Of a DNA stretch of 64,000 bases, positions 3,078 to 57,507 are shown one piece after another. Source of the DNA: Octopus vulgaris (taxonomy: Eukaryota). Position 1 is the stretch's first letter. Each line of letters starts with the position of its first letter. Under the pieces are notes generated by a model. That model was not told the origin of the DNA, did not search any database, and saw only the letters and a list, made by a program, of their open reading frames with translations. Location: contig OX597834.1 of the NCBI GenBank assembly GCA_951406725.2, positions 10,540,001 to 10,604,000 on the forward strand, given 5' to 3'. The translations under genes and the position numbers were made by a program.

Positions 3078-3694
3078 AATATATATCACACATACACACA
3101 TACACATACATATAATGCACCAAAGCGTGTGTTCGGTATAATGTGGATTTCATTACGAGAAATTTTAGATCTCTTCAAATTGTGATCGTGTGACCAGTAT
3201 GGAATCACTACACATTAAAGCAATATAAGGAAAAATAATACATATTAACTATAATTTATGCCTAAAAATGAAGAAAAAACAATAAACTGATTTGCTTCCG
3301 CTTCTTTAGTAGTGTTATTTGACTCACGTTTCTGGTGTAAAGTCATACGTTTATATGCATAGTTATCCGTATATAACGTGTATGTATATATATATATATA
3401 TATATATATAGATAGATAGATAGCGAGAGAGAGAGAGAGAGATTGATAAACAGATAGACAGATTAATATATCTATACATATATATATGTGATGTGCGTAT
3501 GTGTATGTATATACGTGCATTTATGTATATATATGTATATATATATATATACATAGGTATATTTATGTATGTATATATTTGTAAAGAAATATTTAATGTA
3601 TATATAAATACACACACACATATATATATATAAATGCATACTTATATGTATATGTGTATATATATATATATATCATATATATGGATCTATATGT

Positions 3695-3735
<41 letters not shown>

Positions 3736-3758
3736 TAGATGCATTTGAAGGTAGATAC

Positions 3759-3820
<62 letters not shown>

Positions 3821-4247: not shown

Positions 4248-4285
<38 letters not shown>

Positions 4286-6010: not shown

Positions 6011-6090
6011 TTAAACTTCAGAAAACTGCTTTATTGGTAGACGTCAAGTTACCCTTATTCTTTGCATATTTACATATATTTCCATATTGA

Positions 6091-6390
6091 TTACATCGGC
6101 ACAGAGACTTGGGAGACACTTGCTGCCGACCGCTCATCCTGGCGCAGCGCAATCACCACAGGAGCAAAGACAGCCGAGGAGAGATGGATTCAGTCAGCAC
6201 AACAGAATCGCCAGATGCGGAAAGCCAGAGCTACCTGCACCAATAGCACAGCCCCTACCCACTTCTGCCCCACCTGTGGGAGGGGCTTTCTTGCCCGGAA
6301 TGGCCTCACCAGCCACCTCCGGTCTCATAGCAGCAATTCCACCAAATGATGTCAATGGTCATCTTCGAACCCGAAGGACGAACATTATTA
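6091..6390 (+). mobile_element. 5'-truncated RTE-clade LINE (ORF C-terminus plus 3' UTR)
   Basis: WETLAADRSSWRSAI...CPTCGRGFLARNGLTSHLRSH matches the typical RTE C-terminal W..LA.DR..WR motif and zinc finger; short (ATT)n tail; possible TSD ATTACATC at 6090-6097 and 6390-6397. Confidence 0.85.
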
Positions 6391-12970: not shown

Positions 12971-13490
12971 TCTATATATATAAAACTGTAGTTGTGTGAG
13001 TGTCTGTCCCCTTCGATTTAGATTCCTAACTACTCCCACATTTTGCGGTGCAGTTTAACCAAATTCGGGTATCTTATAGTCGTGATTCATATCGAGCCTG
13101 CCTGAGTATTAGCGCCGCGCGTCTACAATGTGTCTACGATTTTAAAAATAATTTAACATAATTTTTTATTCCATTTTAATGCATAATTTTTCGTGTGTCG
13201 ATGGCAGCGGAGTTGGCGTCCACGCTCAAACACCTGCACCTGTGTTTACTTCTCCCCCTTCTTCCCTCCCTCGTGAAGCTGTGGAGAAGGGAGTGTAATG
13301 AAATCAACGTCGTAATGCGTTGTCAAGGAGACCAGCGTTCTTTTAGAACAACGACTTCATGGCTTGAAGACACCAAAACAGAAATGGCTAAGAAAGCCCG
13401 AATTGGCATCTATAAGGGAAGTAACTCTCTAAAAATGCTCATATAGTTATTTCCCTTACAAACCCGAGCAACGCCGGGCGATACTGCTAG
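12971..13490 (+). mobile_element. Non-autonomous Helitron, variant 1 (with ~220-bp cargo)
   Basis: Starts TC after a host A; ends CCCGAGCAACGCCGGG hairpin + CGATACTGCTAG; no TSD. Confidence 0.85.
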
Positions 13491-13790
13491 TCTTTATATA
13501 TAAAAGTGAAGTTGTGTGTGTGTCTTCTAAGATTTAGATTCCTAACTACTCCCACATTGTGCGGTGCAGTTTATCCAAAAGCGGGTATCTTATAGTCGTG
13601 ATACATACCGAGCCCTTCTGGGTATTAGCGCGCGTCTACGATGAGTCTACGATATAAAAAAATAATTTACCATCATTTTTTCCCATTTTTAATGCACTTT
13701 TTTGCTATTATATAAGGGAAGTAACTCTCTAAAAATGCTTGTATAGTTATTTTCCTTACAAACCCGAGCAACGCTGGGCGATACTGCTAG
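13491..13790 (+). mobile_element. Non-autonomous Helitron, variant 2 (no cargo), head-to-tail with the previous copy
   Basis: TC start immediately after CTAG; same 3' hairpin and CTAG, followed by host T. Confidence 0.85.
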
Positions 13791-14511
13791 TGGACTCTAA
13801 ACGTCAAGATTCGGAAGAAATGACGCTATGCAAACGCTCGTAGATTTAGAATGAAAGTGCAATGAACAAACAGGTATTTATGGGAGAAATGTGTATATTC
13901 GTGTGCGTATTCGCATGTACGTATATTCGTATGGATGTAACTGAGCGACGGAGAGAATATGCATTACCTCATACACACATAGATATCTTCTATATGGTAA
14001 TAAGTAGTTAGTGTGAAGAACCTAGCAAACCTAGCTCTAGAGATAAAATTGAGTGGAATTAATTAGCATATGAAACCTGATGAGAATTTCTGATAACATA
14101 TTTGGTTTTGGCGCTATATATTTGATAAATTTATTTTAAAATGTTATAAGATATTTATGCTATAATATATATATATACACGTGTGTAATTAATAATATCA
14201 GGGTAATAAAGATTTTAGAAATTTTTACTACCTGTGGCCTAGCGTGTACAAAAATTAGTTAATAGGCTATATATTATTCATATAAATACGGTGTACATTT
14301 AAACATATAAGATATATCCGTCATAGGATTCCTTTCATGCTAGAAGGAACAGCTAAAGACCAAACGACTTTTAGGGATGAAAACTCCATGGGAATGAAAT
14401 ATAAAAATCATTTACCATCTATTTGCTAAAAAATGTCTGAAACCATGGTCCAGGAAATAGATAGTAAATGTTTGTATTTTTCATTGACTACGAGGTTTTA
14501 TCCCAAATAAA

Positions 14512-17890: not shown

Positions 17891-18237
17891 TGCTTGCAGC
17901 CATCATGTGCTATAGAACATAATTATATGAGCATAAACCAACACCGCGCATTGCGATGATCGTAAAGAGAACACTTATACAACACTTGTTTGTACAGAAA
18001 GTGAAGAAACCGTTTTAAGGCACATTGCGAAGCTGATCGGAATCTACGTCAAAAAGCCCTCCATCCGCGAACTCACAGCTTATAATCTGTTAAGTAAGGC
18101 GAGCTTGCAGAATCGTCATCATTTTAGGGTCGATGAAATAAGAGGCAGTAGAGAACTAGACTCGGTGTAATCGAGTTACACGCTGCCTCGAAATTGCTGG
18201 CCTTACCTCAAATTTTGAGATCGATTTTAGTATTAAA

Positions 18238-18724
18238 CTAGCAGTATCGCCCGGCGTTGCTCGGGTTTGTAAGGGAAATAACTATATAAGCATTTTTAGA
18301 GAGTTACTTCCTTTATAGATGCCAATTCGAGCTTTCTTAGCCATTTCTGTTTTGGTGTCTTCAAGCCATGAAGTCGTTCTAAAAGAACGCTGGTCTCCTT
18401 GACAACGCTTTACGACGTTGATTTCCTTACACTCCCTTCCCCAGTGCTTCACGAGGGAGGGAAGAAGGGGGAGAAGCAAACAGGTGCAGGTGTGACCATG
18501 GACGCCAACTCCGCCGCCATCGACACACGAAAAATTATGCATTAAAATGGAATAAAAAATGACGTTAAATTATTTTTAAAATCGTAGACTCATCGTAGAC
18601 GCGCGCTAATAGCCAGACGGGCTCGATATGAATCACGAATATAAGATACCCGAATGTGGGAGTAGTTAGGAATCTAAATCGAAGGGGACAGACACTCACA
18701 CAACTACAGTTTTATATATATAGA
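18238..18724 (-). mobile_element. Non-autonomous Helitron, variant 1
   Basis: Reverse complement of 12971-13490; CTAG at 18238, GA (=TC) ending at 18724; inserted between A and T. Confidence 0.85.
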
Positions 18725-18994
18725 TAAGGCGGGGAATTGGCAGAATCGATAGCTTAATGGCATTTCGTCCGTCTCTCCGTTCCAAATTCCGTTGAAGTTG
18801 GTTTTGCAATTCATTCTCTCAGGATCGATGAAAAAATAGGTACGAGTCGAGAACTGGGGTCGATGTAATCGACTTACTTCCTGCCCTGAAATTGCTGGCG
18901 TTGTGCTAAAATTTGAAATCAATATTGGAATTAAACTTGATAGACTAAGATGCTTCTGTACAGTTGTGTTAACGCACAGTGTTGGCTGTTAAAT

Positions 18995-26575: not shown

Positions 26576-28410
<1,835 letters not shown>

Positions 28411-28875
28411 TCTAATGTATTTTTCCTTTTAAGTGTTCACTTACTATTTCTGATGTGTTTTTGTTTTGAGAATATATCTCCATATGTTAGCTAGTCTACT
28501 AGAGTTCATTGCTCTATCCAAATCATTATCTAAGTTATTTTTCTTCCAGATTTTATATGTATATGTTGTTGCCTTTTCGCTCTGTGGCTATAGCATTGCT
28601 GTAAAATAAGAGTGTAGGATTGAAATATATATTTCTCGCGTGCCTATTTATGCTTTTTTGATTTTATTTGCTGGGCGTGACGAACAGCGTCACGCCCTTT
28701 ATTTTGGTGGTCATTATATTCGAAGGGTACCGATCCCTTCATTTCTAGTGTTAAATGGTTTTGGACGTATAGTTTTTAGTACATTTGTGTAACAATTTTA
28801 ATGTACGTACTTCCTGTACCAGCTTAAAGAAATCTCTAACAAAACTACTTCTACTACTGCTACTGTTACTACTAT

Positions 28876-34932: not shown

Positions 34933-35520
<588 letters not shown>

Positions 35521-41906: not shown

Positions 41907-41956
41907 TTCCCATGCCGGGAATCGAACCCGGGCCGCCTGGGTGAAAGCCAGGAATA
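41907..41956 (-). pseudogene. 5'-truncated tRNA-Glu(TTC) pseudogene
   Basis: ATTCCTGGCTTTCACCCAGGCGGCCCGGGTTCGATTCCCGGCATGGGAA gives the anticodon arm, T-arm and 3' acceptor of tRNA-Glu; D-arm and 5' acceptor are missing. Confidence 0.85.
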
Positions 41957-41988
41957 CTGGTACGAATTTTACACAAAGGATTATATTA

Positions 41989-43528: not shown

Positions 43529-43960
43529 GGATCTTTTCGGTTTGAACGGCAGTTTTTAACATAATTTCTAGGTAACTAAAAAATGTTAAACGTCGTATAC
43601 TGGTAGAATGTGCTTATAAAACACCTTTTTTCTCTTGGCTTTATTGAGAAAATGCTATAGTCTGTAAGATATTTGTTGTTTTTTTTTTCAATTTCTGCAA
43701 TTTCAACCAATCAACTACGTCCATTGAGGTAAACAACATTCTGTGCCGTATGAATATGTCCCTCGCTTAAGAAACAGATTAGGTTTATTTACATTTCTGA
43801 AGAAAAACAGATACCCTTCCCCCACCCCTAACTCTAACCCTAACTAACACTAACCCTAAAATAGATTGAAATTCAATAGATCGATACTAGGGTCATAATT
43901 ATGGGTGACAATTTCATATGACACCGCTAGAAAAAACTGCCGTTCAAACCGAAAAGGTCC
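43529..43960 (+). mobile_element. Merlin-like MITE, no TSD visible
   Basis: Same TIRs and body as 24548-24975. Confidence 0.9.
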
Positions 43961-44245: not shown

Positions 44246-44671
44246 GGATCTTTTCGGTTTGAACGGCAGTTTTTTTCTGACGGTGTCATATGAAATGCCA
44301 CCCATAATTATGACCCTAGAATCGATCTATTGCATTTCAATCTGTTTTAGGGTTAGGGTTAGTAAGGATTAGAGGTGGTGGAAGGGTATCTTTTTTTCTT
44401 CACAAATGTAAATAAACCCAATCTGTTTCTTAAACGAGCGACATATTCATACGGCACAGAATGCATTTTAACTCAATAGACGTCACTGATTGGTTGAAAT
44501 TGCAGAAATTGAAGAAAAACAACAACAAATATCTTACAAACTATAGAATCTTCTCAATAAAGCCAAGACAAAAAGATGTTTTATAAACACATTCTACCAG
44601 TATACGAAGTTTAAAATTTTTTAGTTACCTAGAAATTATGTTAAAAACTGCCGTTCAAACCGAAAAGATCC
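44246..44671 (-). mobile_element. Merlin-like MITE, no TSD visible
   Basis: Same family, inverted relative to its neighbours. Confidence 0.9.
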
Positions 44672-44948: not shown

Positions 44949-45378
44949 GGATCTTTTCGGTTTGAACGGCAGTTTTTAACGTAAATTCTAGTTCACTAAA
45001 AAATGCTAAACTTCGTATACTGGTAGAATGTGTTTATAAAACATTTTTTCTCTTGGCTTTATTGAGACAATTCTATAGTTTGTAAGATATTTGTTTGTTT
45101 TTTCTTCAATTTCTGCAGTTTCAACCAATCACTGACGTCCATTGAGGTAAACAACATACTATGAGGTATGAATATGTCGCTCGTTTAAGAAACAGATTGG
45201 GTTTATTTAAATTTGTGAAGAAAAAAAGGTACCCTCCCCCCACCCCTAACCTCAAAACTAACTAACCCTAACCTTAAAATTGATTGAAATGCAATAGATC
45301 GATACTAGGGTCATAATTATGAGTGACAATTTCATATGACACCGCTAGAAAAAACTGCCGTTCAAACCGGAAAGATCC
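44949..45378 (+). mobile_element. Merlin-like MITE
   Basis: 8-bp TSD CAGTTTAG at 44941-44948 and 45379-45386. Confidence 0.92.
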
Positions 45379-45687: not shown

Positions 45688-45724
45688 TATCAGTAGTTAG
45701 TAATCAAAAAATATAACAAACAAC

Positions 45725-48700
45725 GGATATTTTCCTTTTGAACGGCACTTTTCAACACAATTAGTAGTTAACTAAACACTTTTAAACTTCGTATACTGGT
45801 AAAATGTGTCAAAATAAAACATTTTTTGGATCTTTTCCTTTTGAACGGCACTTTTCAGCACAATTTCTAGTTAACTAAACACTTTTAAACTTCGTATACT
45901 GGTAGAATGTGTCAAAATAAAACATTTTTTTTTATCTTTTCCTTTTGAACGGCACATGTCAACACAATTTCTATTAACTAAACACTTTAAAACTTCGTAT
46001 ACTGGTAGAATGTGTCAAAATATAACATTTTTTTCTCTTGGCTTTCTTGAGAAAATTGTAATTTGTTTGTTTAACGTAGTTTAATTTTTCGAATTTGTGC
46101 AACAACTAATTCATTCGGTCGTGCAAATTGTTTGCACGGGAACCTTGCCCTGTTTGGCGGTTTTCCCCGTTTTTGTGGATCTGTTTTTCGGCTTTTTTTA
46201 GCCATTTCTGTCTTGGGCATGGCGTCTTCAAGACATGAAGTCGTCGTTGGAAAGAACGGTGGTCTCCTTGACAACGTTTACGACGTTGATTTCCTTACAC
46301 ACCCTTCACCACAGCTTCACGTTGGAGGGAAGAAGGGGGAGAAGCTACACAGGTGCAGGTGTAAGCATGGACGCCAACTACGCCAGCAACACCACCACGA
46401 CCACCACGACCACGACCACCGCCGCTGCCACTACCACCTACGCCGTCGCTATTTCCACTGCCACCGCCGCCACTAACACTACCACCACTACCATACTATT
46501 ACCTCTGCTCTCTCCTTTTGGCTACTAAATCTATTACCATATTTCAAAAGTACCATCGCCATACAATATTGCCCTCAAAAGTTTGTGTTCGGATAATAAT
46601 TTTTATGTAAAAGTTGTGCAACAACTAAAACATTCAGTCGTGCAAATTGCTTGCACGGGAAACCTGCCCTGTGTGGCGTGTTTCCCGAGTTTGTGTCTCT
46701 GGTTTCGGCTTTTTTAGCCATTTCTGTTTTGACGATGGCGACTTGAAGCCTTGAAGTCGTCGTTGAAAAGAAGGCTGGTCTCCTTAACAACGCTATAGGA
46801 CGTTGATTTCCTTACACTGCCTTCCCCACAGCTTCACGAAGGAGGGAGGAAGGGGAGGGAAGCAGCACAGGTGCAGGTGTTAGCATCGACGACAACACAC
46901 GAAAAGATTGGAAGAACCCAGACGACCGCTTCACAAGTCAACGACTACTACGGACACACACGCACACACGCACACATACGCACGCACGCACACACACACA
47001 CACAGACATGCACACACACACACACGCACACACGCACACACGCACATGCACACATACACGCACACACACACATACTCACACACACACGCACACACGAACG
47101 CACACACTCGCACACACACACGCACACACGCACACACGCACACACACATGCACACACACACACACACACGCACACACACGCACACTCATAAAAAGTCATA
47201 GAGCATCATTTAATGAAAAAAATTCAATGAATAAAAGTTATGGAACATCGCATCTAGAGACTACTAGCCATTTCCTTGAAGGTGCATGGCTCAGTGGATA
47301 GTGCGTTGAGCCTAACATCCTGGGACCTTTTCCTTTTGAACGGCACTTTTCAGCACAAGTTATAGTTAACTAAACACTTTTAAACTTTGTATACTGGTAG
47401 AATGTGTTTATAAAACATCATTTTTCTTGGCTTTATTAAGAAAATTATATAGGTTGTAACATATTTCCACTTTAAAATCGAGCGTTTCGGCAATTTTAAC
47501 CAATCAAATACGTCCATTTGGGGTGAAAACATTCCGTTCTGTATGAATATATCCCTCGTTTAAGAAACAGATTGGGTTTGTTTACATTTGCGAAGAAAAA
47601 AATATACCCTTCCCCCACTCCTAACCCTAACCCCACCCCACCCCTAACTCTAACTCTAACTAAACCTAACCCTAAAATAGATTTAAATGCAATAGATCGA
47701 TACTAGGGTTATAATTATGTGTGACATTTTCATTTGACACTGCTAGAAAAAAAATCCATTTTCCGTAGCGGTGTCGTATGAAATTGTCACCCATAATTAT
47801 AACCCTAGTATCGATCTATTGCATTTCAATCTGTTTTAGGGATAGGTTTAGAGTTATGGTTATGGTTAGGGTTAGGAGTGGGGGAAGGGTCTCTTTATTT
47901 CTTCGCAAATGTAAACAAACCCAATCTGTTTCTTACACGAGGGATATATTCATACAGCACGGTATGTTTTCACCCCAAATGGACGTATTTGATTGGTTAA
48001 AATTGCCGAAATGCTCGATTTTAAAGTGGAAATATGTTACAACCTATAGAATTTTCTCAATAAAGCCAAGAAAAAATGATGTTTTATAAACACATTCTAC
48101 CAGTATACGAAGTTTAAAAGTGTTTAGTTAACTATAACTTGTGTTGACATGTGCCGTTCAAAGGAAAAGGTCCCAGGATGGAAAAGGTCCCACTGAGCCA
48201 TGCACCTTCAAAGAAATGCTTAGAAGTCTCGAGCTGTGATGTTCCATAACTTCTATTCATTGAATTTTTGTCATTAAATGGTGCTCTATAACTTTTTATG
48301 AGTGTGCGTGTGTGTGCGTGTGTGCTTGTATGTGTGTGTGTGTGCGTGTGTGCGTGTGTGTGCGCGCGTGTGCGTGTGTGCGTGTGCGTGTGTGTGTGCG
48401 TGTGCGAGCGTATATGAGTGTGTGTGTGCGTGCGTGTGGTTGTGTGCGTGTGTATGTGTGTGTGTGTGTGTGTGCGTAGTAGTATTTGACTGTGAAGCTG
48501 TCGTCTGGATTCTTCCAATTTTTTCGTGTGTCGGTGGCGGTGGAGTTGGCGTCGATGCTCGCACCTGCACCTGTGTTGCTTCCCTCCCCTTCCTCCCTCC
48601 TTCGTGAAGCTGTGGTGAAGGCAGTGTAAGGAAATCAACGTCGTAAAGCGTTGTCAAGGAGACCAACGTTCTTTTCAACGACGACGTCATGGCTTGAAGA

Positions 48701-49592
48701 CACCATGCCCAAAACAGAAATGGCTAAAAAAGCCCGAAAGCAAATTCTACAAAATCGGGAAAAACCGCCACACAGGGAAGGTTTCCCGTGCAAAGAATTT
48801 GCACAACCGAATGTTTTAGTTGTTGCACAACTTTTACATAAAAAATGTTATCCAAACACAAACTTTTGAAGGCAATATTGTATGGCGATGGTACTTGTGA
48901 AATATGGTAATGGATTTAGTAGCGAAAAGGAGAGAGCAGAGGTAATAGTATGGTGGTGGTGGTATATGAAATAGCGACGGCGTAGGTGGTAGTGGCAGTG
49001 GTGGTGGTGGTGGTAGTGGTGGTTGTGGTGGTTATGATGGTGGCGGCGTTGGCGACCATACTCACACCTGCACCTGTGTAGCTCCTCCCCCTTTCCCCCC
49101 TCCCTCGTGAAGCTGTGGGGAAGGCAGTGTAAGGAAATCAACGTCGTAAGCGTTGTCAAGGAGACCACCGTTCTTTCCAACGACGACTTCTTGGCTTCGA
49201 GTCGCCCAAACAGAAAATGGCTAAAAAAGCCGAAAAACAAATTTATAAAAACGGGAAAACTGCCACAAGGGGAAGAGTTCCCGTGTAAACAATTTGCACA
49301 ACCGAATGAATTAGTTGTTGCACAAATTCGAAAAACTAAACTACGTTGAACAAACGAATTACAATTTTCTCAAGAAAGCCAAGGGGAAAAAATGTTGTAT
49401 TTTGACACCTTCTACCATAATACGAAGTTTTAAAGTGTTTAGTTAACTAGAAATTGTGGTGAAAAGTGCCGTTCAAAAGGAAAAGATCCAAAAAATGTTT
49501 TATTTTGACACATTCTACCAGTATACAAAGTTTTAAAGTGTTTAGTTAACTAGAAATTGTGCTGAAAGCTACCGTTCAAAAGGAAAAGATTC
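45725..49592. mobile_element. ~3.87-kb palindromic (foldback) Merlin-like non-autonomous transposon
   Basis: Termini GGATATTTTCCTTTTGAACGG / CCGTTCAAAAGGAAAAGATTC; TSD CAAACAAC at 45717-45724 and 49593-49600; arms mirror about ~47758; ~103-bp subterminal repeats (3 left, 2 right). Confidence 0.9.
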
Positions 49593-51106
49593 CAAACAAC
49601 TCCTAAATATTATGAACGAAATTCGGAAAATTTTTAGTTCAAGATAAAATTAATAATGGGCAAATATGACACACCCAGTGTAGCACACGCTTAATTAAAA
49701 ACGTGTCTTTGGCTGCACCATAAACAAATACTAATAAACTGTTTACTCACGCACGTAAAATGCAAATATGTATGTTGTGAGATGAATAACAATAGATCTG
49801 TGTCTATAACGCTATAGTTTGCCTAACTCATTTCGCATTATCTTATATACACTTCAAGCTACATCCTTCGAGAATTTTATACTACGTCCAAGTCGATAAA
49901 CGCATTTTAATCACTTTGAATGCTAGAAAAACAGAGAGTTGCTTCTTCAACACATTACAACTCTACTGGGAAACGCTAAATACTATAAAGCAATATGAAG
50001 TAATAATTCTAAATTGGCCACTAGTTATTGAACACATGTCGTTTATATTATACGAAAGAACGTTTAGCCTATTAGAAGAAAATCAATCTTTAGTTTACTT
50101 TAATTCACCTACCTCATTTCTACACTACATAGTATTCAGTATTCCTGTGGCTTTTTTTGGTTATTTATTTTATTTTCCGATTCTGTCACCACTGACATTA
50201 CTGTCTGTCAATAGTAATAAAGCTATGAGTTTGTTGTATTTGTTGGTGTTGTACGAACAATTTAATCATTAAGCGAGGGTTATCGCTTCAATTCAATAAA
50301 TCAACTGAGTCTTCCTACTTCATTTCACATCATTGTGTAAATTTCTAATTCTGATTAAAATATTTTTGTTTCTTTTCACCCTTGATTTACTTAAGTATAA
50401 CTTTGTTGATTTGATTATTTTCCCATTTCAAATGGCATTTAACTATTTAAAAATGCTGTCCATACATCTAAAATATATATAATCAAACCAAATGTTGTTG
50501 TTTTGACTATCTATTAAATGACTTCATTTATATTCATTATATGAGTCAAAAGTTTTTTGGTTTTTTTTATGTTTGAAATAAAATTCAAATACTGCAATTC
50601 AGTTTCCATAAGATAAAACCAAACACTGGAAAAATAAAAATAGCAAAATAAAAACATTTATATATAATTAAAAAAAAAAAACTAACAAACATGACCTTTG
50701 ATTTCAAAACAACAAAATGCAAAACAACAGACAAACAATGGTTCCAGTATACGTTATGTATTCATAAACATTATAAAGTAAATAAATATATAAATAGGCA
50801 ATACAAAATAGATGAATCTGGTTAAACTGTGATAAAATTGATAATCAATTCAGTGTTAATAACTTTAACGATTTTTTTTCTTCGGTTATTCCAATTTATT
50901 TCAGTTGATGGTTATCTCTATATTGGCTTCGTGTTTATTATTATTATTATTAGTACGAAGGCGATGGAGCAACAAATTTATTAGATTGTTGGACAATTTA
51001 CAAAATGGTATTTAGTAACTACCCTTTAACTGCCGAGATCAAATCTTTCCCAGGTCAAACTTTTCGTTCATTTTTTCAAGGGCGTGTAAAATATATGTAC
51101 CCCAAT

Positions 51107-57102: not shown

Positions 57103-57507
57103 GGATCTTTTCGGTTTGAACGGCAGTTTTTAACATAATTTCTAGGTAACTAAAAAATTTTAAACTTCGTGTACTGGTTGAATGTGTTTATAAAACATAT
57201 TTTTCTCTTGGCTTTATTCAGAAAATTGTATAGTTTGTAAGATATTTGTTGTTTTTTTTCTTCAATTTCTGCAATTTCAACCAATCAATGACGTCCATTG
57301 AGGTAAAATGCATTCTGTGCCGTATGAATATGTCGCTCGTTTAAGAAACAAATTTGGTTTATTTACATGTGTGAAGAAAAAAAGATACCCTTCCCCCTAC
57401 CCTAAAATAGATTGAAATGCACTAGATCGATACTAGGGTCATAATCATGAGTGACAATTTCATATGACACCGCTAGAAAAAAACTGCCGTTCAAACCGAA
57501 AAGATCT
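57103..57507 (+). mobile_element. Merlin-like MITE with a 32-bp flanking duplication
   Basis: Same TIRs; GAAAGAACTCTCTAAAAACCTC(T/C)AAAGAACTG on both sides. Confidence 0.9.

Follow-up and report, generated by a model that had tools for sequence, protein, structure and literature searches.

Merlin transposable elements are defined by GG ends, target site duplications (TSDs) of 8-9 bp and a DDE_Tnp_IS1595 transposase, often contain internal tandem repeats, and were originally described with terminal inverted repeats (TIRs) of 24-462 bp, two Repbase entries having TIRs of 1,000 bp (PMC8101967). In cephalopods, 191 Merlin transposase sequences were found in Octopus bimaculoides (PMC8101967), and 18 Merlin families comprising 2.19 Mb were reported in O. 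vulgaris, two of them recently active, with 11 insertions of 2.6 kb on average; the supplement of that study names neither foldback nor palindromic elements (PMC13282606). Here we analyze a window of 64,000 nucleotides from O. vulgaris (contig OX597834.1, positions 10,540,001 to 10,604,000, assembly GCA_951406725.2; coordinates below refer to this window), in which positions 45725-49592 are occupied by a foldback element composed of two long mirror arms.

The closest described elements are Merlin entries of Repbase from Danio rerio. Merlin-N5_DR, likewise non-autonomous, is listed with a TIR of 1,000 bp (PMC8101967, file 5) and has mirrored arrays of a 113-bp repeat (531-1114 and 3193-3775), its length of approximately 4.3 kb being inferred from the mirrored repeats 22-55 and 4251-4284; in Merlin-1_DR, TIRs of 1,000 bp are accompanied by mirrored repeats of 99 bp and by tracts of dinucleotides; and Merlin-2_DR is also listed as a related entry (PMC8101967). 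The octopus element differs from all three in that its arms reach an 8-nt loop and its tandem repeat is the TIR-bearing end itself. Its arms also carry pieces of Helitron-like elements, of a short interspersed nuclear element (SINE) and of a miniature inverted-repeat transposable element (MITE), the comparison with the Repbase entries being one with their tabulated features only.

Similar architectures are known outside Merlin. The TIRs of Tetris from Drosophila virilis are modular and reach 1,735 bp, and its internal tandem repeats stem from the terminal domain. Tetris lacks a conserved open reading frame (ORF), has TSDs of 8-9 bp, occurs in many rearranged forms and shares its ends with a partner MITE, DAIBAM, but it has a middle domain of variable size and is tentatively filed under Mutator (PMC4079207). 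The non-autonomous Galileo 2RT of Drosophila mojavensis has TIRs that grew to 1,260 bp via tandem repeats and inverted internal copying; it differs in belonging to the P superfamily, in its 7-bp TSD and in having recruited its own DNA (PMC3573991). Mu killer and Ac killer of maize are inverted duplications of transposon ends that may form kilobase-scale hairpins (PMC3440606; bioRxiv 2020.01.07.897926). Both contain part of a transposase sequence or more, and both are transcribed and exert silencing in trans. Further foldback elements with a near-palindromic or modular build, ranging from 1.6 kb to several kb in length, are Tc4 and Tc6 of Caenorhabditis elegans, FB of Drosophila and TU of sea urchin, which belong to other superfamilies and have other TSDs.

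The novelty of the layout, which the original prediction implied, is not supported, similar layouts being already described, as far as the published tables and text extend, in Merlin-N5_DR and Merlin-1_DR (PMC8101967) and in Tetris (PMC4079207). What sets the octopus element apart is its near-total symmetry together with cargo from three repeat families; the layout itself is already catalogued in zebrafish and flies. A literature search found no paper on an octopus foldback element, on a palindromic non-autonomous Merlin MITE or on four sequence motifs from the window. A consensus of the element may already be present in Dfam, Repbase or the O. vulgaris transposable element library (PMC13282606).

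Structure of the palindrome

The element is an imperfect palindrome of 3,868 bp with a GC content of 42%. Its left and right arms are 2,026 and 1,834 bp long, and the global alignment of 45725-47755 with the reverse complement of 47760-49592 consists of 2,060 columns. The arms agree at 1,651 of the 1,804 positions aligned and disagree at 153, and gaps take up the other 256 columns. BLASTN of the element against its own reverse strand produced 3,915 columns at 84.5% identity, gaps counted. Both comparisons bear out the mirror arms of about 1.9 kb that had been predicted, along which there are 14 perfect runs of at least 30 bp. The central 1,101 nt are predicted to fold, as RNA, into a single long hairpin (-778 kcal/mol). 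The unpaired center does lie inside the 15-bp spacer originally placed at 47751-47765, but it is limited to an 8-nt loop (Table 1) and a 2-nt bulge. The symmetry axis coincides with the inner edge of the right TIR of a MITE and looks like two joined MITE tails, in line with the suggested tail-to-tail fusion.

Several traits of the foldback class are present: long modular inverted arms, tandem repeats close to the ends, a non-coding middle and a TSD. None of the 19 ORFs inside the element has a Pfam match at an E-value of 0.05. In the window as a whole, where low-complexity ORFs were removed first and 136 of 251 complexity-filtered ORFs were scanned, no ORF had a match at the curated cut-offs and none of the 136 matched a transposase family. 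Rfam gave no match within the element and a single tRNA-like match in the window, outside the element. The description of this locus as a foldback element of composite make-up and without genes, whose ends are Merlin-like and flanked by a TSD of 8 bp, is supported.

The predicted perfect 8-bp TSD was confirmed: CAAACAAC occurs twice on the plus strand of the window, at the two ends of the element and nowhere else, and the chance of such a match at the ends is about 2e-5. Of the predicted GG..CC ends, the left one is as described, beginning with GG. The right end reads ...AAAAGATTC, so that either its second terminal G has changed (GA, with an 8-bp TSD) or the TSD is 7 bp long (GG). Tandem TIR-bearing repeats of about 103 bp are also present as expected, three on the left and two on the right, each unit corresponding to the first 103 bp of the left end of a MITE with its 29-bp TIR. 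Both terminal TIRs carry changes, the right one having GAATCT in place of GGATCT. The core TIR is about 29 bp long, while the whole arms measure 1.8-2.0 kb, more than both TIR lengths given above for Merlin (24-462 bp and 1,000 bp).

All seven TIR units of the element have CC at TIR positions 11-12, whereas all ten ends of the five free MITE copies in the window (405-432 bp) have GG there. This common variant argues that the ends and the core share one ancestor, a sibling MITE subfamily. The inner MITEs are 17-19% distant from the five free copies, which are only 6-12% distant from one another; the possibility that the inner MITE is an ordinary local copy was rejected on the basis of this distance, and since the core is of the sibling subfamily, it would not be a late insertion of the common MITE. 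Of the internal copy of the 430-bp MITE without its second TIR that had been proposed, the lack of a complete right TIR was confirmed and the identity with the free MITE was not. The SINE head, expected at 47277-47320 in each arm, is present in the left arm in slightly longer form and stops where the inner MITE starts; the right arm keeps only 21 bp. There, a 12-bp duplicate of the TIR start takes the place of the 3' part of the SINE fragment, and we infer that this duplicate may be the scar of a forward-and-back template switch.

Each arm contains two copies of a module, as predicted, but the module is about 290 bp rather than 200 bp long, and the (CAC)n tract, which had been placed after the modules, sits between the two copies. 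About 200 bp of each module resembles a free non-autonomous Helitron, with 82-87% identity to the repeats 12971-13491 and 18237-18726; in the left outer module this portion is located at 46187-46383. Helitrons of the HLE1 type start with TC after A and end with a hairpin and CTRR before T (PMC11417382). The free repeat 12971-13491 has these marks, namely TC after A, a hairpin with a CCCG stem and CTAG before T. The modules lack such ends: the left outer module has a different hairpin and TTAG where the free Helitron has its hairpin and CTAG, and no 5' end aligns convincingly. The interpretation of the modules as whole Helitrons was therefore rejected in favor of Helitron-like pieces, which, given the different hairpin and the TTAG found in the position of the Helitron's own, may come from a sister Helitron family.

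The free Helitron (approximately 520 bp) is found at 12971-13791 and 18237-18726, with TC after A at its start, a hairpin, and CTAG before T at its end; one copy is accompanied by a shorter second copy in head-to-tail orientation.

The free MITEs have GG at nine of their ten ends, and their TSDs are variable: a perfect 8-bp TSD flanks two copies and a 32-bp duplication a third, while the other two copies lack a TSD. It is at the copy at 57103-57507 that a 32-bp direct duplication (one mismatch) stands in for the 8-bp one, and this copy ends on the right in CT rather than CC. The copies at 43529-43960 and 44246-44671 face each other with their tails across a gap of 285 bp, and neither of them, nor the pair as a whole, has a TSD. 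These two, the copy at 44949-45378 and the foldback element are four relatives within 6 kb, a clustering that may reflect local hopping.

Table 1. Coordinates of the parts of the foldback element and its flanking duplications in the window
Feature	Position	Strand	Basis or remark
TSD, left copy, CAAACAAC, 8 bp	45717..45724	+	exact match to right copy
Left terminal array, three tandem 103-bp units	45725..46034	+	period 103, 3.0 copies, 93% matches
MITE-like continuation to ~46070, then short linker	46035..46091	+	alignment
Left outer module	46092..46383	-	84-85% to 13207-13402 and 18333-18515
Left (CAC)n-like tract	46384..46488	+	tandem-repeat analysis
Left spacer	46489..46610	+	no match elsewhere in window
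Left inner module, second Helitron-like piece	46611..46915	-	alignment
Left (CA)n tract	46954..47185	+	tandem-repeat analysis
Left AT-rich segment	47186..47276	+	no match with E<0.05 elsewhere in window
Left SINE head fragment, 46 bp	47277..47322	+	38/46 identical to 34934-34979, E 8e-9
Left inner MITE, sibling subfamily	47323..47757	+	right TIR missing or collapsed to GAAAAAAAATCC
Loop at symmetry axis, AAAATCCA	47751..47758	.	fold of center
Right inner MITE, without right TIR	47759..48174	-	alignment
Extra 12-bp copy of TIR start, right arm only	48180..48191 (within 48163-48191)	-	alignment
Right SINE head fragment, 21 bp	48190..48210	-	20/21 identical to SINE at 34934
Right (GT)n tract	48302..48477	+	tandem-repeat analysis
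Right inner module	48520..48833	+	86.5-87.2% to free Helitrons over 48520-48738
Right spacer and (GGT)n-like tract	48834..49035	+	tandem-repeat analysis, alignment and run depth
Right outer module	49036..49328	+	most private changes of the modules, 17
Right linker and MITE-like continuation	49329..49386	-	alignment
Right terminal array, two tandem 103-bp TIR units	49387..49592	-	tandem-repeat analysis and alignment
TSD, right copy, CAAACAAC	49593..49600	+	junction bridged by contig 8 of run X1

Proposed origin and its alternatives

The reading that we favor, and hold to be somewhat better than evenly probable, is that of a gene-less, non-autonomous foldback element that was moved in trans as a ready-made palindrome and was built by capture of neighboring repeats and repair-driven copying of one arm; taken by itself, the formation of the palindrome before the jump is probable. 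The order of events that we infer is as follows. A MITE of the sibling subfamily would have landed in a SINE head. A further left end belonging to this subfamily would have been located at a distance of approximately 1.2 kb, and the DNA between the two left ends would have contained microsatellites and two Helitron-like pieces. A break at the right TIR of this inner MITE would have been repaired by copying the left half in reverse, a mechanism proposed for TIR extension in Galileo (PMC3573991), and this would leave an element with two left ends. The terminal 103-bp unit would have multiplied, which would add transposase binding sites; the complete unit would have jumped to its present site, leaving the TSD behind; and the arms would have diverged by about 8% while their repeats exchanged sequence here and there.

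Given the octopus substitution rate of 0.0036 per million years (PMC13282606), the differences between the arms (in their inner and outer parts, see below) would correspond to approximately 8-14 million years, an estimate valid only if the arms began identical and underwent no later conversion. The A/G changes between the arms show no strand bias (12 A>G, 12 G>A, 18 T>C and 15 C>T). The element is likely an inactive, worn relic; the earlier claim that it stayed mobilizable finds no support, both terminal TIRs being changed and the arms having diverged to this extent.

Several observations weigh against this reading, and they are given here and in the next section along with the alternatives on which they bear. 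The first group concerns the mobilizing enzyme, for which a Merlin transposase is the likely candidate. A transposase with these TIRs was not seen in the window (none of 136 ORFs), the right end is not GG when the TSD is read as 8 bp, a clean 8-bp TSD is wanting in three of the five free MITEs, and the majority of foldback elements are regarded as Mutator-like (PMC4079207). The structure could thus be as described and the mobilizer be a Mutator-like or hAT transposase instead, an alternative that we regard as unlikely. Tetris, with its TSD of 8-10 bp, is placed among the Mutator-like elements, and the 8-bp TSD of the octopus element is compatible with the Mutator-like range of 8-10 bp (PMC4079207). 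Mutator-like TSDs are most often 9 bp long, and 8-bp TSDs are also produced by hAT elements. Four motifs of 11-14 nt from the MITE family were missing from the 11 supplementary files of the Merlin survey, and the depth of the TIR in sequencing runs (12,000-52,000x, see below) suggests that the family takes up a larger part of the O. vulgaris genome than the 2.19 Mb assigned to Merlin. On the other hand, Merlin elements with kilobase-scale TIRs do exist (PMC8101967). The clean TSDs, three out of three, are exactly 8 bp long and together with GG ends form the Merlin signature. The ends of hAT elements usually begin with CA or TA.

As judged from its sequence, the element would best be called Merlin-like rather than a member of Merlin, since membership would call for a transposase with these TIRs, in the element or in a partner, and since with an 8-bp TSD it has GG at one end only, while the length of its TSD, shared by two of the five free MITEs, is within the 8- or 9-bp range of Merlin. 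The TIR pattern was found in no viral contig and in no genome contig that was searched. A lone 23-nt match to the pattern in a metagenome contig (L001), with nothing else resembling the element, was taken as chance.

The second group concerns the order of the jump and the growth of the arms. The main rival to a ready-made palindrome is that a shorter or lopsided element jumped and left the TSD, and that the palindrome then grew in place by inverted overwrite, so that the 3.9-kb form never moved; we consider this the less probable course. With microsatellites left out, the inner arms are 5.8% apart (26/446) versus 9.3% (102/1,098) for the outer ones (p = 0.025), which fits copying after insertion. 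A further point against the favored reading is that a TSD of the inner MITE's own within the SINE head was looked for and not found. Among the 24 informative module sites, 15 follow mirror pairing (five of them just outside the shared module) and nine conflict with it. After dropping two sites at a homopolymer, seven conflicting sites are left versus about 1.1 expected from a rough simulation, an excess that suggests exchange between non-mirror repeats, although some of the seven may result from CpG changes or alignment error. In addition, the CATGTC variant is found only in left unit 3 and the right inner MITE, and Galileo is known to lengthen its TIRs by recruiting internal sequence (PMC3573991). 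The same exchange could, however, predate the jump, having occurred in the donor copy, and arm-specific segments are deeper in sequencing runs than two arms would explain. Of the earlier claim that the element moved as one unit, the joint arrival of its two ends is supported by the TSD, but inward copying of the arms after insertion fits the data too.

Representation in public sequencing runs

Of 24 runs listed, 20 hold part of the interval 48490-50400, and none is on record as RNA. Four of them (X1, X3, X7 and X10) were compared over this interval at 85% likeness; depth is the summed contig depth relative to the flank and gives no copy number, and bridging of a junction required 31 letters of the element. 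The right junction is bridged by contig 8 of X1, which extends 50 letters into the element; in the same run, two other contigs match the right arm without differences over 101 and 95 letters. The flanks differ between runs by 3-5 letters in about 850.

The remaining points on the opposing side come from these runs. X1 may be the source sample itself; in X3 and X7, labelled as two other organisms, the flank contigs start with the last 29 letters of the element; and in X10 the right junction is uncovered, the flank contig beginning at 49618. Among the matches listed for the four runs over this interval, there was no empty site, and neither a whole second copy nor a second TSD was seen.

These data also bear on the possibility that the inversion is an assembly artefact, caused by a fold-back read or by two collapsed haplotypes. 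It is true that no listed contig spans 48490-50400, but 153 mismatches and 256 gap columns set the arms apart, the flanks vary between runs by no more than the 3-5 letters given above, the TSD is direct and exact, and X1 provides both the bridged junction and the two perfect right-arm matches. An artefact is hardly credible, and the argument of the original prediction that it is unlikely because the arms differ is borne out.

Sequence of the arm is abundant in the runs. Relative to the flank, the depth is 12,000-52,000x for the TIR units, 490-2,600x for the inner module end, 81-311x in all four runs for the spacer bin 48874-48937 (the mirror of part of the left spacer), 9-64x beside the masked GGT tract, and 2.6-14.4x, again in all four runs, for the outer-module bins 49194-49321. 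The module-spacer join is bridged by contigs at 39x (X10) and 7x (X3), and a variant at 49297 is present in three of the four runs and in none of the four modules of the element. Arm sequence, including the module-spacer join, is thus likely to be repeated elsewhere, and relatives of the element are likely to exist; the source of the deep bins may nevertheless be a separate family of Helitron-like repeats rather than arms of foldback elements, which is the last of the opposing points.

A contig of X3, at about 7x the flank depth, joins a module end, 24 TIR letters and a module start (joints 48821-49466 and 49489-48490). It is possibly a shorter, tandem relative of the arm, its TIR side being below the 30-letter caution.

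Possible consequences and other features of the window

If a mobile palindrome of the kind we favor was indeed assembled in this way, it clearly illustrates the growth of a small MITE into a kilobase-scale foldback element through capture of neighboring repeats and copying of one arm, and its ends would provide a handle for finding the transposase that mobilizes this highly abundant family of MITEs. In Drosophila, inversions are caused by long inverted repeats (PMC4079207), and in maize such repeats silence transposons, so that a family of these elements could be of consequence for RNA editing and genome rearrangement in octopus.

A different role, comparable to that of maize Mu killer, would be that of a silencing hairpin: read-through transcription would yield a 1.8-kb duplex that would either be edited by ADAR or be cut into small RNAs, which would target the MITE, Helitron and SINE families simultaneously. 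The long hairpin predicted for the center, the 14 perfect runs along the arms and the fact that Mu killer is likewise an inverted duplication with two copies of one TIR are compatible with such a role. The arm pieces, however, are 13-19% distant from the free Helitron, SINE and MITE copies, so that targeting would weaken; the element carries no transposase sequence; and no host exon that might supply transcription was recognized among the 136 ORFs. We consider this role very improbable. Equally far-fetched, if not more so, is a dispersed family of palindromic composite Merlin elements with Helitron, SINE and MITE pieces that act as mobile silencing hairpins or ADAR substrates in a cephalopod; if true, it would represent a self-spreading Mu-killer-like locus in an animal.

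Elsewhere in the window, two short ORFs, 28075-28428 on the minus strand (zf-RVT, E 0.00097) and 6041-6346 on the plus strand (C2H2, E 0.004), have matches below the Pfam cut-offs and are probably remnants of long interspersed nuclear elements. The tRNA-like Rfam match (40.8 bits) is located at 41907-41980 on the minus strand and adjoins a dispersed repeat; ARAGORN makes no call there.

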